Source of the DNA: Eledone cirrhosa
Lineage: Eukaryota
NCBI GenBank assembly: GCA_964016885.1
Contig: OZ024741.1
Coordinates: 393,514,001-393,578,000, forward strand
Length of the DNA: 64,000 nt
Reading direction: 5' to 3'
This document shows positions 2,905-63,146 of the stretch, one piece after another. Below the pieces are notes generated by a model. That model did no database searches and was not told where the DNA came from. It was given only the letters and a program-made list of their open reading frames with translations. A program made the translations under genes and the position numbers. The stretch's first letter is position 1. Each line of letters begins with the position of its first letter.

Positions 2905-3890
2905 CTGCAAAAATATAATATAAATTACTCATATAAATTATGATATTTATTTAATACTTATTTAATACTTATTTAACAACAGAGAAGCTGAACAAGTGAC
3001 TAATCATCTTATGAAAAAATAATCATTTTTTCTTTTATTTGTTTCAGTATTAGACTGCAACAATATTAGGGCAACACTTTGAAGAGATTTAGACAATCAT
3101 ATCAAACCTAAAACTATTTTTGTTTTTGAAATCTGGTACTTATTTTATTGATATCGTTTTGTTACTCTGCTAAGTTACAGGACATACACACACCATCAAT
3201 ATCATCATTGTTTAATGTCTATTTTTCCCTTCTAGCAAGAGCAGGACATGTCATCACAAACGGGTCAGTACTCAATTGGACCCTCTGACCTTTAGGTGGG
3301 TCATGGGCTTAACATACAATCTTGTGCTCTACTGTGTGCATTTTATCATGACACCAACACTAGAGGAGTTGTCATGTATTTGACATAGCTGAAGAATCTT
3401 CCCAACCCTTTGTTTGACAGGTTTCCTACTACTTGGTGTCCCTCCTATCTCTACCCACTTTACAGAGTGTACTGGGTGTGTGTGTGTATATATATATATT
3501 TAATACATTAACAGAGAAAGCCTTAAGCGATACTCCAACCAACTCCATCTCACTCAACAAACATTAGGATATACCTAAGTATTTTCCCAATTTAGTGTTT
3601 GGGGTGCTAACTAATCAGTATTTCGTGGATAGCTGGTTGTATTATTTTATATGAGACATAATTAAATAAATATCTCTTTCCTTCCAGACGATCATTTTGT
3701 TATAAGATTTCTACAATTTGGGATAAATAATGTCCAGGTTATGTAGAAACTTGTATATAATCCATAGTTTTATACACAAGCGAGCTCTTATAAACTCATC
3801 AGTGGATGCCCAAATAATATCGATATAAAAATTACATCGACATTAATAGATTAGTGATGGTCTCCTTCAGCGCTAAAATATATATATATA

Positions 3891-4518
3891 TAAATGTAAT
3901 CTGAGTTTTCGAATATTAATAATAATATTCGATTCATTTGCAATTATGCAAACAAGCTTCATTTTTAAAGCCATGTCAGTAGAATGAGCCCCTTATTCTT
4001 GCTCTTGTGTTGGCATGTAAACAGAACTGCAGACACTAATGTTTCTGGGTATTACCCTTCATCAGTACAGTTCACTGTTCACCTGCCAACTGTCAGAGAT
4101 AGTGAAAATGTATGCTATTTTCTAAAATATACAGTGACGGATCGGCCTGATTTGCATATTAGCAGACTGGCTGATCAGTCAGATCTGCATATTAGCAGAT
4201 CAATTGATCAGCCAGATTTGCATATCAGCAAACTGGCCAGTCTGTATACGAGCAATCAATGGCTGGCTTTGCCATATTCAAATAATAAAAACATTTTTTG
4301 CTCTACATGGCTGACAGCTCTGACAGTTGGCAGGTAAACAGTGAACTGTACTGTAATACCCAGAATCATTAGTGCCTGCAGTCCTGTTTACATGCCAACA
4401 CAAGTGCAAGAATGAGGGGCTCATTCTACTGACATGGCTTTAAAAGCGAGGCTTGTTTGCATAATTGCAAACAAATCGAATATTATTATTAATATTCAAA
4501 AAACTCAGATTACATTTA
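3891..4518. mobile_element. non-coding fold-back element: ~210-bp inverted arms, each with a hammerhead motif, around three 33-bp palindromic repeats
   Basis: Begins TAAATGTAATCTGAGTTTT and ends AAAACTCAGATTACATTTA, and the arms are reverse complements. Core units at 4140-4238. Further copies at 4673-4905, 31720-32128 and 62562-62962. Confidence 0.85.
4024..4073 (-). ncRNA. type I hammerhead ribozyme (canonical core)
   Basis: Minus strand reads GAACTGTA-CTGATGA-AGGGT AAT ACCC A-GAAAC ATTAGT GTC-TGCAGTTC. Stems I, II and III pair and the cleavage triplet is GUC. Confidence 0.85.
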
Positions 4519-4590
4519 CTGTACTCAGCCATGTAGAGCGAACATTTTTTAAAATTATATATATATATATGTTAGTTATATATATATATG

Positions 4591-4631
<41 letters not shown>

Positions 4632-4904
4632 ACTAACAGATAGTGTTATCGTTCTACATAGTTGAATACAAGAAATGTAAATCTGAGTTTTTTTAATATT
4701 AATAATAATATTCGATTTGTTTGCAATTATGCAAAAAGCATCTTCAGCCATGTGAGTAGAACAACCTCGTCATTCTTTCTCTTGTGTTGGCATATAAACA
4801 GATAAACAGAACTAATGTTTCTGGGTGATTACCCTTCATCAGTACCATATACTGTTTACCTCCCAACTCTCAAAGCTTGTGAAAATATATTATATTTTCT
4901 GGAA

Positions 4905-6445
4905 TATATATGTTCTTCCAGAACAACACTGGGCATACTATGAAATTATTTCGTCAGCCAGAGGAATTTCCTTTCTTGATATTCCCAGTGGCACAGGTAA
5001 AACATTTATAACAACATTGCTTCTCTCCAAGGTAAGGCAACAATAAAGAATTGCAGTTGCTGTAGCATCGTCTGGCATTGCTGCCACCCTTCTCCCAGGA
5101 GGATGAACAGCTCATTCTGCTTTTAATTTGGTCACAAAACCTGGTCAACATATGACAGTCCAATTTGTAACATAAGCAAAGGTTCAGTTCAGCAGAAGTG
5201 CTGCACCAATGCCACCTGATCATTTTGGATGAATGCACCATGTCACATAGAGGTGCAATGAAGCGCTTGATAGGACCTTACAGGACATAAGAGACAACAA
5301 TACATCTATGGGAGGAGTTACATTAGTTCTATCAGGAGACTTTAGACAGATATTACCAGTCATTCCGAGAGGAACAAGAGCTGATGAAATAAAGGCATGC
5401 ATCAAGTCTTCGCACCTATGGAATAAAGTACAGAATTTCTCCTAACATGCGAGCTTTATTACACAGGGACCAATGTACAGAACAGTTTTCAACCCAACTC
5501 CTTCAATTAGGAAATGGGGCAGTACCGATTGATGGGAGTGGTGATATCAATTTGGCTCATATTGCTATCATGGTGTATTCCCCAGCTGAATAGAAGAACA
5601 AGGTATTTTCAGACTTAAGTAATCATTATAATTCACATAAATGGTTGTGTGTAAGGGCAATTCTTGCTATGAAAAAATGAGACAGTAGCAAGAATTAACC
5701 ATGAGCTAATAAGTAAGATTGCCACAGTAATTAAGGAGTACAAATATTCAGTCTTTGATGAAAGTCAAGCTGTCCACTACCAAACAGAGTTCCTAAATTC
5801 TATTGAGCCACCTGGAACTCCTCCACATAAACTTTTCCTGAAGGTAGGAGTCCCAATAATGCTTCTAAACATTTTAGATCCTCTTAAATTATGCAATGGG
5901 ACAAGGTTGATTGTGAAGACATTATCACCTAATGTGATAGAAGCTGCCATCATCACTGGATGTGCCTCTGGGGAAGATATTTTCATTACAAGAATTTCAA
6001 TCAAACCAATGGACAATTCTCAGTGTGACTTTGCTTCACAATGTCTATCAATAAAGCTCAAGTTCAGATAATGAAATCTACTGGCTTGCATTTAAGTGAG
6101 TCTTGCTTTTCTCATAGTCACCTTTATGTTGGTTGCTCCAGGGTGGGTAGTTTACAAGATTTATTTGTCTATGCCCCAAACCATAAAACAAAGAATGTTG
6201 TTTATCCAGAAACTCTTATGTAATTTCCTTCAACATATGTGATAGAATTTATCTCCCCTCATAAAAGCGATAAATTTGTATTTTCATTTTTTTCTTATTT
6301 TTTTTTGTATTATGAATTCAGAATTGATTTCATCATGTACCTCAATTGAAGAATAAATGGAATTTAGAATATCAAACATGTTTTGCATTCTTCTAACATT
6401 TAATGAGCACTTTCATTCTCGGGCAACGCCAGGTGCCTCTGCTAC
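4905..6445 (+). mobile_element. Helitron 3' portion, decayed PIF1-family helicase
   Basis: GTGKT Walker A, ASSGIAATLL, GDFRQILPV, LCNGTRL, SINKAQ and LYVGCSRV fragments with stops and frameshifts. 3' end has a CGGGCAACGCCAGG hairpin-type motif then CTAC (normally CTAG) before TA. Confidence 0.9.
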
Positions 6446-7236
6446 TATATATATAAAGTACACAAAATGTAATCTATGGATGCACAGGAGATGAGGCCAG
6501 GGCCCATCTGATTAAGTACTGACTTGATCTATGATGACCCATCTAACCCTTGCTAGCAGGGAAAGCGGATATTAAATGATCATATATATATATATCATGA
6601 CAAAAAGCACCCAGCACACACTGTAAATGTGGTTGGCATTAGGAAGCACATCCAGTCACAGAAACCAAACCAGATAGGGTTCTGTTTGAGAAAGACACAG
6701 GCAAGACACGGTCACCTGACCTGATGTGTCTCAAACCCATGCTAGCATGGAAAACACACCTTAAAAGATGATGATGATGATATATATATATATATATATA
6801 CATAATATATATATATATATATATAGGAACCAAATAAATATATTTAAAAAAGAAAAAAGACTCCAGTTGCATTTTCGATTTCCTCTTTTTTCCTTATACC
6901 TTCATTCGTGTAGGACACCTTGGTTTTTTTTTCATTTTGTAAAAAAAACCTCACTTTCTAATATATATATATATATATTATGTATATACATATATATATA
7001 TATTATGTATATAGTAATAATAATAAATTTGAAGACTAATATATATATATATTATATGTGTATACATATATGTATTATATGTATATATATTTATATATAT
7101 ATAATATATATATATATGTTGACCCCGGCAGGATTTCAACTGAGAAACGTAAAGAGACGTAACTGAACAAATACCGCATGGAATTTCGTTTGATGAGTTA
7201 ATGAATTCTGCCAATCCACCGTCATAATAATAATAA

Positions 7237-9216: not shown

Positions 9217-9279
9217 ATGGGAGTGCGTGGCTCTGATGAACGCCAACCAGCATGAAACAGACTGTTAGCTACTCTCCAT
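9217..9279 (+). ncRNA. orphan type I hammerhead ribozyme inside a (TA)n tract
   Basis: GTGGCT-CTGATGA-ACGC CAACCA GCAT-GAAAC AGACT GTT-AGCTAC, with an outer GGAG/CTCC pairing. Confidence 0.75.
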
Positions 9280-31550: not shown

Positions 31551-31760
31551 TTCTCCGGATTACTTTTGGAACTACAACTGGAACCGTCGAGCAAACTCTA
31601 CGTGAGCTGATAATCTACTGTGTGTAATATTTATATTACAACACAACGGAAAATACTGTATATATATATAAATATATATATAAATATATAAAAAAAAAAA
31701 GAAAATATTTTTTTGAAAATATTTTTGAAAATACCATATATTTTCACTAGCTCTGACAGT

Positions 31761-31840
31761 TTGGCAGGTGAACAGTGAGCTGTACTGATGAAGGGTGATA
31801 CCCAGAAACATTAGTGTCTGCAGTTCTGTTCGCATGCCAA
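31761..31840 (+). ncRNA. type I hammerhead ribozyme (same family as 4024-4073)
   Basis: TTGGCAG GTGAACA GT GAGCTGTA-CTGATGA-AGGGT GAT ACCC A-GAAAC ATTAGT GTC-TGCAGTTC TGTTCGC A TGCCAA. Confidence 0.85.
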
Positions 31841-32139
31841 CACAAGAGCAAGAATGAAGGGTTCATTCTACTGACATGGCTATAAAATTGAGGCTTGTTT
31901 GCATAATTGCAAACAAATCGAATGTTATTAATAATATTCGAACGCCATGCTTTGCAGCAAAGAGTTACGGCCCTTTATGGTCTGAGTTCAAATCCCGCCG
32001 AGGTTAACTTTGCCTTTCATCCTTACAGGGTCGATAAAATAAAGTACCAGTAATGTACTGGGTAATTGCTGGCCTTGTGCCTAAAGTTGAAACAATTATT
32101 AATATTCAAAAAACTCAGATTACATTTATAAATATATAT

Positions 32140-32355: not shown

Positions 32356-32546
32356 AGAGAGAGAGAGAGAGAGAGTTAGATATATATATATAGAGAGTTA
32401 TATATATATATATAGAGAGAAATGAAGAGATTAGGATGTTTTTCAATGCAGTTGTATAAAAAATATAATAATATAATGATTATAGAATGAAAACACAAAC
32501 AAATATATACAAAGGAAATGGAAAGGAAAAAAAAACAAAGAGAAAA

Positions 32547-43064: not shown

Positions 43065-45459
43065 AAAATTGAACAGGAACAAAACAGAGAGGCAGTACGA
43101 ACAAATGTTTATTAGTTTCACGCTCTTGAGAGTGGGGTGGTGGTGGGGGACGACGTTTCGGGCATAAGCCCTTCTTCAGGCGAAAAGTGTGTGGGAAGAG
43201 AGTTCCAAGGGTGTGTAGGGGAGTGGGGGAGAGACATTTAGAAAAAAAGGGGTGAGAGGAAACGGTACAAATGAATAAATATAAAAGCATAATAAAAATA
43301 AAAATAAACTTGAAGTAAAACAAGTGGTGGAAGGGTGTGGGGCGTGTAGGGGTGGTAGCGGGTGGAGTGGGGAGAGGGAGGTGGGGTATCCGAGCGGGGA
43401 GGGCTGAAGGTGGTGTGTGTGTATAGGTGTACGTGTGTATGTGAATGTGAGAGTTGGGGGGAAGAACGGGGTTGCATGTTCAGGAAAAGGTGTGTGTGGG
43501 GTGGGGTGTAGGTCGGTGTGTGTGCGTGTGTGTGTGCGTGTGTGGATGGGGAGGGGTCAGAGGGGTGGGGGAGGGGAAGAGAGGATTCCAGAGGCTGAGT
43601 GTGTAAATATGTGGTGGTACGCATGTGTGTGTGGTGTTTATACGTATTGTGGATGTAGGTGGCGTGTGGGAAAAATTTTTTTTTTTAGTGTATGTCCGTG
43701 GGTAAGTTCCTAAGGTAGTTCCGTAGAGGATGTGGTGGGATGCTGGGTAATTTCCTTGTGATGGAGTTGATTCGTGGGAGCAATGTCCAATGTGTGTAAT
43801 CCGTAGTTGGGTTGGTTGGAAGAGGGGAGATGTGGGGTGCGCGCGCAACGGGAAGTGGTCAGAGGGTCAAGGCAGGAGGAGGGTTGTGTGTCTGTGTGTG
43901 CGGAGAGGTGGTCAGAGATTCAGGGCATAGCAGCAGTCGGGGAGAATGGCAGTGTATTAGTGTGTGCGGAGGTGCGGTGGACAGGGGAGAGGATGGGTAG
44001 GTGTGAAAGGTAGAGTGGGGAGGGTGTGTGTATTAGTAGAGGTATTAGTGGGATGTGTGTGTGTGAGAAGGGGTGTGGGTGGAGCGGGGAGGGGGAGGGG
44101 AGAGAAAGGTGTGGGGGCCGGTGGAGGGAGTGTAGTGTACTGGTGTGTGTGTGTGCGTGATAAGGCGAGAGGGGGGAAGAAAGGAGGGATGTTAGTATTG
44201 TTAGTTGGGGAAGGGTGGTCGGGTGTGGGGTGGGGGTGTTAGTATTATTAGTTGTGGGGTGGGTGGTGAAAAGGAGGGGTGTGTTAGTGGTGTTAGTGGG
44301 GGATGTGTGTGTGTGTGTGTGGGGGGACATGGCGGTCGAAGGCTAAAAGGAATAGGGGTGGGGAGTTCAGGCCGGGGGGAGTGTGGGTCTGTAGGGTGAA
44401 GATGGTGCGCTGTTCGACCCTGAGGAGGGTGGCGGGTGTTTCGTGGCATTGGAGTAGGCCACAGACTGTGAGGTGGTGCGGGAAATGTCCAGGGGCGCCA
44501 AAGTGGCGGGCGATGGGGGAACTACCGCCGAGACGAATATCCCGGAGGTGTTCGGTAAACCGGTCCGCCAGGCGACGTCCAGTCTGTCCAATGTAGGTTG
44601 CGCTGCACTCTGTGCAGTGAAGTCCATAGACTAGGTTGGAGGAGGTGCAGCGGAAGGCATGCCGGACAGAGAGAGAGTGGCCGTTGGGACCCTGGAAGGT
44701 GGTGGTGTTGGTGATGTGGGGACAAGTGTTGCAACGAGGCCTGGAACAGGGAAGGGAACCGGGGGGAGGTGGGGGGGGGCTGTGGACGAGGAGGGTGCGG
44801 AGATTGCGTGTGCGTTTGAAGGAGGGGAGTGGTGGGGCTGGGAAGATGTGGGAGATGGAGGGGTCGGACTGGAGGCGTCGGAAGAGGCGGAGGATGGTGC
44901 GGTGGAGGGGTAGGGTGGAGGGATGGTAGGTGATGGGGAAGGGGAGACGGTGGGTGTGGGTGTGTGGTGGCGTGGGGTGAGGGTGGTGGAGCGGTGGACA
45001 GCACGGGCGCGGGTGAGGGCGGTATGGACGAGAGGGGGGGGGGGGGGGGGGAACCTCTGCGGATGAAATGGCTGACTAGAGAAAGGGCTTGGGACTCGTC
45101 AGCATCTCGGCTACAGAGGCGGCGGATCTTGAGGAGTTGGTAGTAGGTAATAGAGTGTTTAGTGTGTGTAGGGTGGGAAGAGGTGAAGTCGAGGTCGGAG
45201 TGGGAGTCGGTGGGTTTGAAGAAGGCGGATGTGATTAGGGAGTGGTGGGAGGGGTCGAAGGCGATGGAGATGTCTAAGAAGTGGACGTCGGTGGTGGAGA
45301 TAGAGGTGGTGAAGTGGAGGGAGATGTGGAAGGAGCAGAAGAAGGAGAGAAAGGAGTCGAGCTGTTCTCGGGTGAGGGTCGTGGTTCCGATACAGTCGTC
45401 GATGTAACAACCGTACAGTTCGGGCGTGGGGCCGGTGTACTGGGCAAAGATTCGGGCCT

Positions 45460-54477: not shown

Positions 54478-54900
54478 TGTAAACCATTAAAGCCAGTGAT
54501 AGCAATGTGGGCAACCTAAGAATTAAGGAAGCCTTGCACATACGTAGACTCAACCCGCAAATAAATAATAGATTAGAACTCAGCACACAGTACTTGCCAT
54601 ACAAAGACAAACCCACAGGCACACAAGCAAAACATCTCATATAAAAAAGAAAATTGATTTCGCGAAATACTATATTGGCAATTGATGTCATTCATGTGGA
54701 AAGCGAATTAACCATAAAAAAAACGCTTGAAAACGACTTAGAAAATATTTAAATCAAAATCCAAATTTTATCCCAAAGAGAGGAAATTGGAACGTTATCC
54801 TCTGAAAGTTCCTTAAACCCTGATGAAGGGACTTTTAGGTCCCAAAGTATTGGACAGATAAAAGAACAACAACAAAACAAAACAAAGATTACCAGGTAAC
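54478..54900 (+). mobile_element. Penelope-like 3' relic with decayed hammerhead (~54817-54850)
   Basis: ASDSNVGNLRIKEALHIRRLNPQIN (GIY-YIG C-terminus), then CTGATGA-AGGGAC TTTTAG GTCCC-AAAG with the G of GAAA missing. Confidence 0.65.
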
Positions 54901-58449: not shown

Positions 58450-59385
58450 CACCCTACGGAGTTGAGTTGCTCAATATCTTGGATATTTTTATCTACCTAT
58501 TACTTCTATATGGAATTCAGAAACGAACACCATACAAGTAACCCATTCTTAAAACAAACTAACATTCACACACCACACTCACAACAAACAAAAAAAGTAG
58601 CAAAGCATGAAACATACCCTCAGCAAAACTATGACGATAATCCCAGAATTCATAGACAACACTATAACCCTACTAAAAAATCCAAGCACCCCCTAACACA
58701 AGACAGGACTTGATCCAACACCATAGATTGCAACTCACACAAAGGAACAAAAATTACAACCCGGACCAGCAACAAACCAAACCTGAGTACGTCTGCAACT
58801 TCTATAAAAGACCACACAATAACTGTTAAAATGCCATCAGATATAGTAATACCCATGAAAGAACAATTCTGAAAGATCATTTTTTAGACCAAGGCTACAG
58901 GACCCACAACACCCAATGGTACAAACCTATTTTGAAAAGTCGAAAATAATCAATCTTTCAAATACAAACTTCTCAATTCAACAAATAAAATTTCTCTCAA
59001 AAGGACTGAAATTTGTGTGGATTTCAGTCCTTTTGAGATAAACAACAATATTCCACACTTCTGTAGAAAATTACGTCTAACAGTTTTTGACAAAGAGAAT
59101 AGCGATGAATCAATTGTATGGAATAAAAGCAGCTACAACCCAACAAAGGGCAGGAACAGAATTCTGGACAAAGTTTGTGACCACATATCAACTTTCCCAT
59201 ACCATGAACTACCTTAACCTGAACTCAGTTGAAGGGAATGGGAGATTATTCATGAATTAAAAACAATAATGACATAATTAAGGAAGCTGATAAGGGAAGC
59301 ACTATCATCATTATGGATGCTGAACATTATAAAAACTCCATATCCTCTCTCTTACAAGACACTAACTACTATGAAAGAGCTACCA
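58450..59385 (+). mobile_element. Penelope-like N-terminal relic (a related relic probably at ~45520-46070, minus)
   Basis: KGLKF, FCRKLRL, IIKEADKGSTIIIMD..Y....L.D..YY. Confidence 0.7.
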
Positions 59386-59387
59386 GC

Positions 59388-62561: not shown

Positions 62562-62962
62562 TAAATGTAATCTGAGTTTTTCGAATATTAATAAGAACAA
62601 GATATTTCGAATATTAATAATAACATTCGATTTGTTTGCAATTATGCAAATAAGCCTCAATTTTATAGCCATGTCAGTAGAATGAACCCTTCATTCTTGC
62701 TCTTGTGTTGGCATGTAAACAGAACTGCAGACACTAATGCTTCTGGGTATCACCCTTCATCAGTACAGCTCACTGTTCACCTGCCAAACTGTCAGAGCTA
62801 GTGAAAATATATGCTACTTTCTAAAATACACAGTGACTGATTGGCTTGATTTATATATTAGCAGACTGGCTGATCAGTCAGATCTGCATATTAGCAGATC
62901 CACTGATCAGCCAGATTTGCATATCAGCAGACTGGCCAGGCAATTTTCGCTCTACATGGCTG
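62562..62962 (-). mobile_element. one-armed copy of the HHR-bearing element (HHR at 62708-62787, GAAA mutated to GAAG)
   Basis: Colinear with 3891-4314, including the three 33-bp units. Confidence 0.85.
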
Positions 62963-63146
62963 AATACAATAAATGTAAATTAGAATTGGTGCTCTGAAAT
63001 AGCGATATATATATGAATGTATATATAGTGTATTTTGCAATACACTGTCGCTACTTTAAAACAATAGCGTATGGTCTTCAAAATGCTTTTAATTAAGCAT
63101 ACAGTGTATTGCAAAATACACTATATATACATTCATATATATATAT

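Follow-up and report, generated by a model that had tools for sequence, protein, structure and literature searches.

A 438-nt non-LTR retrozyme family with a type I hammerhead motif, probably inserted into (TA)n by proteins of Penelope-like elements

The window, the whole stretch of 64,000 nt that was analysed, contains five copies of a non-coding repeat, found at each of the five places where an earlier note on this DNA had reported an arm bearing a hammerhead ribozyme. The coordinates are collected in Table 1, with positions in the repeat (u1-455) numbered on a natural copy, L014:1262-1716; the genome assembly searched (G000) amounts to 3.0 Gb. Both motifs with an intact core, in copies 1 and 4, contain CUGAUGA, GAAA and the GUC site, and the predicted C17 falls at 31818 in copy 4 and at 4032 on the minus strand in copy 1, in agreement with the cut position given earlier. 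The core of copy 2 is lost as had been described, and the GAAG reported for the core at 62708-62787 is seen in copy 5, where the u97-438 segment is followed by a short duplication and then by a 3' end and a TA-rich flank.

The segment at 3891-4518 had been taken for a single fold-back with inverted termini. It is composed instead of two head-to-head copies, one running on the minus strand from 4314 to 3891 and joined to another on the plus strand from 4316 to 4548, so that the second ends 30 nt beyond the proposed limit. The 3' end of copy 1 corresponds to the first of two initiation sites discussed below and abuts a (TA)n run at 3880-3891. Copy 3, described as decayed, is indeed damaged in helix III and at the cut site but both CUGAUGA and GAAAC are retained, and the copy is one of an older hexaloop subfamily. 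Copy 4 is interrupted at an AT-rich hotspot of the unit by a different insertion, which appears to be SINE-like. From position 32387 onward the window also contains a tandem array with a 40-bp unit, present in at least 60 copies of 93-98% identity.

Table 1. Copies of the repeat and associated features in the window
Feature	Position	Strand	Remarks
Copy 1, almost whole unit (u24-455)	3891..4314	-	88.9% to L014
Type I hammerhead motif of copy 1, core intact	4010..4088	-	C3 at 4065, A·A at 10.1:11.1
Copy 2, inverted 5'-truncated arm (u244-455 and tail to u46)	4316..4548	+	hammerhead core deleted
(TA)n target microsatellite between copies 2 and 3	4557..4632	.	
Copy 3, older hexaloop subfamily (u222-454 and tail to u36)	4653..4899	-	80% to L014
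Copy 4, u215-437	31720..31942	+	97.8% to L014; A/TA-rich upstream flank
Type I hammerhead motif of copy 4, core intact	31761..31840	+	predicted scissile bond 31818/31819
Different, later-inserted repeat within copy 4, apparently SINE-like	31943..32094	+	short direct duplication flanks
Copy 4 3' end (u422-455), then (TA)n	32095..32128	+	
Copy 5, u9-42 joined to u97-438	62563..62978	-	core A15.1 to G

The repeat unit is 438 nt long: sequence past the end motif proposed earlier re-enters the unit, landmarks recur at 438 nt, and head-to-tail units have the same spacing. Its GC content is 37.8%, and the longest ATG-initiated ORF in two natural dimers encodes 54 amino acids. Searches of the genome returned 1,305 exact matches for the 34-nt core, 5,103 for a downstream 18-mer and 2,978 for a looser core pattern, each against none in the reversed control. 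With 1,305 core matches versus none in that control the family lies far beyond chance, and its copies in the genome number thousands. Two intact tandem cores 430-444 nt apart were found in 13 of the 235 family loci (a count that omits three L110 rows, which belong to the sister family B described below), and these loci suffice to template a full unit. Three sequencing-run contig sets cover the unit, although as contigs they are silent on ends, strand and expression. An insertion hotspot is located at u410-445, where 45 segments of 61-395 nt are found in the 235 loci; a SINE-like repeat is recognised in 42 of these, always in the sense orientation of the unit, and the variable lengths suggest that the insertions are independent of each other. 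Three pairs of loci (L255/L256, L117/L118 and L018/L027) have an identical insertion junction and flank and are likely to be segmental duplications.

All core bases (CUGANGA, GAAA and UH) are present in 38 of 58 unselected copies, in a motif whose helices II and III are closed while helix I is open. Judged from the sequence, the geometry is that of a canonical type I hammerhead. The earlier note had called the whole ribozyme canonical, and this holds for the geometry but not for the closing pair of helix II, since position 10.1:11.1 is occupied by A·A in 55 of the 58 copies in place of G10.1-C11.1. The norm at this position is G-C, with U·U described as the best tolerated mismatch (PMC3088659), and U·U occurs naturally at the base of helix II in the axolotl hammerhead HHR_Amex2 (PMC7229834). 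Because such natural exceptions exist, the A·A pair deprives the motif of the term canonical but not of the term hammerhead. No example of an A·A closing pair was met in those parts of the literature that were searched, and it is expected to slow the ribozyme. The Rfam hammerhead models, which had been suggested as a check, gave nothing at the gathering score over the window, nor at E<=10 around 31.8 kb.

Across copies of the family, divergence is 2.9% in the 12 core columns and 5.7% in base-matched columns (P about 0.02), so that the core is better conserved than its surroundings, the reverse of one outcome that the earlier note had named as grounds for refutation. Shared variants are found in none of the 12 core columns versus 33 of 325 columns elsewhere, a difference that is not significant alone. 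Most shared variants in helix I retain pairing; those at u272/u273 break two pairs of a model with an 8-bp helix.

A distant sister family was found with a profile of 41 copies, and a pattern describing only the shared geometry returned 40,466 matches in the genome versus one in the reversed control. Among the 100 of these matches that were listed, three families can be distinguished by the pair at 10.1:11.1, namely family A (A·A), which is the 438-nt family of the window, family B (U·U), with a unit of 420-540 nt and an internal TA run, and family C (G-C), with a unit of 466 nt and one array of more than 30 units. Families B and C (L151, L152, L161-L190; G000:C1:5738332-5752438) are the more abundant sisters, and array length seems to increase from A through B to C. 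The hexaloop form with A·A gave 1,141 matches, of which those listed are older subfamilies of family A; the A·A pair is thus retained through several subfamilies. At least three further high-copy hammerhead repeats, unrelated to these families, were encountered (L147:703, L148:8686, L159:3266, L070:1035), one with the canonical G-C closing pair and the others with U·U.

Covariation was computed on 13 natural rows drawn from the three families. Eight of the 12 pairs are changed on both sides, comprising five of six in helix I and three of four positions in helix II, and the covariation score is 0.611 versus at most 0.107 in slid controls, which are paired at no more than 37%; as the 13 rows are related, the shuffle control overstates the significance of this result. 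Unchanged across the families are the core, a GUAW/UC internal loop, U1.7 and the last A of loop II, the latter two being described as partners in a tertiary pair (PMC11875169). The long bulged stem I proposed earlier does fold (z about -5), but the comparison of sister families favours a 6-bp helix I followed by the GUAW/UC internal loop over an 8-bp helix with a 2-nt bulge.

In the predicted fold of a lone copy the helix III strand pairs with the core, and the active monomer is placed at +6.2 kcal/mol. Families B and C show a similar penalty for the active fold, so that it must partly be a limit of the folding model, and the idea of a self-inhibited monomer special to family A was rejected. 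The helix III strand of copy 4 (31808-31817) is self-complementary over 10 bp, with a predicted dimer helix of -8.8 kcal/mol. With the core of a lone copy predicted to be sequestered and the helix III strand palindromic, the folding models fit cleavage as dimers, a mechanism described for other hammerheads (PMC4209133; PMC6155905). For Xenopus retrozymes, only one of nine predicted dimers is reported to have cleaved in vitro (bioRxiv 10.64898/2026.07.22.740005).

The anatomy of the insertions was studied in a sample not selected for the core, comprising the first 100 matches of the 18-mer on contig C1, which merge into 83 loci. The 134 terminal segments fall mainly on two discrete 3' ends, at u445-455 (72) and in the tail at u37-63 (53), and nine end elsewhere. 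The end recognised earlier at AACTCAGATTACATT is one of these, and the second is 38 nt beyond it. After 105 of 125 ends there is a TA run, versus 509 of 4,150 background windows. The 5' ends are scattered, the copies being 5'-truncated partial tandems, and a head-to-head inverted arm is present in 46 of the 83 loci (47 of 79 and 30 of 40 in further samples). Arm lengths vary freely, single arms and head-to-tail tandems are common, and the tail is found on one side. All marks of insertion mobilised by Penelope-like elements (PLEs) are therefore present, namely 5' truncation, an inverted arm, a tail of 30-40 nt and a microsatellite target. For PLEs themselves the pattern is described as partial tandems with an inverted truncated copy and a 30-40-nt tail (bioRxiv 10.1101/2021.04.23.441226), the tail lying between two internal RT start sites (PMC11167929). 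Because the anatomy of the repeat matches both the tail and inversion and the two-site internal initiation, it is the signature of PLE-type insertion. Together with the unit structure and the cross-family covariation, this supports the earlier view of a high-copy, non-coding, MITE-resembling element that is retrozyme-like or derived from a non-autonomous PLE.

The 5' ends are informative with respect to the predicted cut at u313/u314. They were counted for family A, family B being left out with 25 unselected copies, too few for the purpose; alignment artefacts at the semi-palindrome u319-345 were trimmed and fold-back pairs were counted once. The ends cluster just downstream of the cut, with 18 in u314-326 versus 6.6 expected in the 82 loci of the discovery set, a value reached in two of 200 simulations of an all-window scan. 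In a replicate of 40 new loci, taken from 532 anchor matches with the u314-326 interval fixed in advance, there are 10 versus 3.8 expected, and the pooled count is 28 versus 10.4 (P 4e-6). Only seven ends lie in the 13 nt upstream of the cut. The adjoining interval u327-339 is likewise raised (16 ends), and the edge is blunter in the replicate, with one end exactly at u314 versus five in the discovery set. The other long hairpin of the unit has no excess (16 ends versus 16.9 expected).

The concentration of 5' ends directly behind the predicted cut suggests that cleaved RNA serves as a template, with RT run-off at the cleaved 5' end accounting for the pile-up. The region also forms the 3' side of a 21-bp hairpin, in which there are two short palindromes, and stalling in helix I or fold-back at these palindromes could have the same effect; fold-backs account for 21 events there. 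Since 87 of the 150 ends lie upstream of u300, uncut multimers or circles would also act as templates. For the one PLE tested in vitro, Poseidon, cleavage is reported as dispensable for insertion, with no RNA ends at the site (PMC11167929).

These counts bear on a reading that we regard as unlikely, in which the repeat is a non-autonomous passenger of PLEs with a hammerhead that is inactive or plays no part, the templates are uncut tandem transcripts alone, and the pile-up reflects RT stalling or fold-back in a strong hairpin. Such a passenger would accord with the A·A mismatch at 10.1:11.1, with the predicted sequestration of the core, with the result for Poseidon, with the majority of ends past the site and the fold-backs at its short palindromes, and with the eight of nine Xenopus dimers that did not cleave. 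The core, however, does not vary among three families that differ in the sequence of their helices, and the A·A pair is conserved through several subfamilies. The pile-up moreover peaks beside the cut and falls upstream, while the other long hairpin is at expectation.

Candidate drivers are encoded in the same genome. Loci with GIY-YIG domains are abundant (150 of 10,597 candidates were scored), and the 20 loci fetched for long frames contain ORFs with RT and C-terminal GIY-YIG of up to 938 and 1,096 amino acids. The near-intact ORFs end in (TA)n, and most carry the CxnCxxC linker of Neptune/Nematis; autonomous PLEs and the retrozyme thus coexist. Four of the autonomous families (L141, L143, L144 and L270) bear minimal hammerheads of their own, some of which appear by eye to be a U3-A8 core variant. 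Within the window, a decayed PLE remnant with RT and GIY-YIG lies at 44377-45421 (-), and a minimal hammerhead-like motif is found on the same strand at 43179 (-), about 1.2 kb downstream of it. Further PLE coding remnants are found at 58504-59387 (+) and 54486-54596 (+), with about 70% amino acid identity to L141 and 59% to L151, and another hammerhead-like core is present at 9233 (+).

Four clear chimeras and one probable chimera were found in which the retrozyme is joined to 5'-truncated coding DNA for RT and GIY-YIG. Three were reached from the family-A side (L055, L091/L270 and L196), where 195 loci offered about 100 free 5' ends. In L055, 98 nt coding for RT stand between (TA)n and u196-455, which is again followed by (TA)n. 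In L091/L270 a single insertion combines family A, as the inverted arm, with a main arm that is a 5'-truncated PLE and extends as far as the 3' end of that PLE; L196 is built alike, its PLE being a more distant one. When sampling started from the PLEs, L353 and probably L318 accounted for two of the 36 visible junctions, counted by eye, among 58 loci of the L270 subfamily, with 13 unassigned bases at the joint in L353 and 14-54 in L318. No junction with family A was seen in 30 loci of the younger L143 subfamily. Given a density of about 1.3 sampled insertions per Mb, the number of such chimeras estimated to arise as background is far below one. Similar PLE junctions occur in family C (L173) and family B (L297). 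One further candidate, L087, was rejected as an insertion into a PLE, its tail abutting a PLE ORF of which the upstream piece is 2 kb away; in nine others (L017, L047, L085, L100, L120, L125, L241, L246 and L374) the PLE coding DNA is 145-1,500 nt away, and they were likewise left out of the count. The chimeras are few and involve at least two PLE families, and as copies are fused to RT and GIY-YIG coding DNA, these sequences point to Neptune/Nematis-type PLEs as the drivers.

It could be supposed that the copies are merely 3' (pLTR) remnants of one autonomous PLE so far not found, given that their truncation, tail and inversion resemble PLE ends and that Xenopus retrozymes are homologous to pLTRs. 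This appears quite improbable. Beyond the tail the sequence re-enters the unit, which has no ORF, and the 42 free 5' ends have no common upstream sequence at a fixed position of the unit; PLE coding DNA is joined at differing positions, u173, 196, 230 and 251. A comparison of the 41-copy profile with 40 PLE loci gave no homology except in inserted retrozymes, and the PLEs bear different, minimal hammerheads. No autonomous parent with an RT and GIY-YIG ORF between pLTRs of unit sequence is present in the 235 family loci and 40 PLE loci, and the possibility, raised earlier, that the repeat is simply the end of a catalogued PLE finds no counterpart among them. That the repeat is a DNA transposon, either a fold-back MITE or one linked to a Helitron, and resembles a hammerhead by chance is scarcely credible and effectively refuted, despite the resemblance of 3891-4518 to long inverted termini and a PIF1 helicase remnant beyond copy 3. 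Fixed terminal inverted repeats on both sides are absent, arm lengths are variable, many copies are one-armed, the tail is one-sided, head-to-tail tandems occur, and the pairing covaries across families. The remnant is a neighbour, the other four window copies having no adjoining Helitron. The remnant itself is a broken Helitron-type PIF1 helicase (PF05970, PF21530) at about 4930-6450 (+), directly upstream of copy 3, and terminates in a GC-rich hairpin-like 3' end near 6420-6447.

The repeat is thus probably a 438-nt non-LTR retrozyme with a type I hammerhead motif, predicted to cleave itself, likely as a dimer, and likely inserted into (TA)n by the RT and GIY-YIG of Neptune/Nematis-type PLEs. 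Loci with tandem units would be transcribed, and cleavage after GUC would follow the exchange of palindromic helix III strands between two hammerheads, a lone copy being predicted to sequester its own core. By analogy, a host ligase may circularise some of the monomers. A PLE protein would nick (TA)n and prime cDNA at two internal sites 38 nt apart, giving the two 3' ends, and the inverted arm would result from a second primed strand or a template switch, sometimes on PLE mRNA, which would yield the chimeras. On part of the templates RT would run off the cleaved 5' end, producing the pile-up at u314-326, and on uncut or circular templates it would read through the cut site.

A broader proposal can be put forward only tentatively, and may well not hold in full. 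It would have a superfamily of more than 40,000 hammerheads with three sister retrozyme families forming a natural G-C/U·U/A·A series at the pair that is the most conserved in helix II of the ribozyme; hammerheads of the A·A form would work in vivo as a switch that cuts only in dimers, the chimeras and run-off ends would name the proteins of Neptune/Nematis-type PLEs as the enzyme that mobilises the family, and cleaved RNA would be a real template.

The family bears on two questions, namely what moves animal retrozymes and what role hammerhead cleavage plays. For the first, it offers candidate drivers that can be named and whose near-intact ORFs lie in the same genome; it also gives two mapped initiation sites and an excess of 5' ends at the cut that recurred in the replicate. 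Families A, B and C allow the closing pair of helix II to be compared in three natural forms, and family A illustrates why such elements are mislabelled as MITEs and missed by Rfam. The open-access papers and preprints searched contained no account of family A, of an A·A closing pair or of chimeras between retrozymes and PLEs.

The class itself is already known as non-LTR retrozymes, of which family A is an additional member: its 438-nt unit is within the range of 150-450 nt, carries one type I hammerhead, is non-coding, occurs in tandem and has a GC content below 45-50%. The retrozymes of coral, mussel and axolotl described by Cervera and de la Peña (2020, PMC7229834) have the same 150-450-nt non-coding unit, a GC content below 45%, one type I hammerhead per unit, tandem copies and coexisting PLEs, which that paper names as a strong candidate for moving them. 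The axolotl HHR_Amex2 described there is also mismatched at the base of helix II and performs better as a dimer. In contrast to those retrozymes, family A has A·A rather than G-C or U·U and a palindromic helix III strand of 10 nt, and is mostly dispersed, with less than 1.5 units per copy; its tails, inversions and PLE chimeras are seen directly, whereas circles belong to the retrozymes of that paper and family A is known here from genomic DNA.

EN+ PLEs of the Neptune/Nematis type (PMC4209133; bioRxiv 10.1101/2021.04.23.441226; PMC11167929) resemble family A in 5' truncation, inverted arm, 30-40-nt tail, microsatellite target and palindromic helix III. Family A differs in its lack of an ORF and in its hammerhead, which has a canonical 6-bp helix I with an internal loop and a helix II of four positions, whereas the minimal hammerhead of those elements has an extra base after A9 and G10.1-C11.1. 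The retrozymes of Li, Clavereau and Pollet (2026, bioRxiv 10.64898/2026.07.22.740005) are of the same class, with the same proposed dependence on PLEs; they occur as dispersed monomers and clustered multimers, as does the sister family C. The evidence given there comes from co-occurrence and pLTR homology in 31 vertebrates and four invertebrates (three insects and one anthozoan). Family A has no pLTR homologue in the sampled loci, and its link to PLEs lies instead in insertion anatomy and chimeric junctions, clues to movement that are unusually direct within the known class of animal retrozymes.
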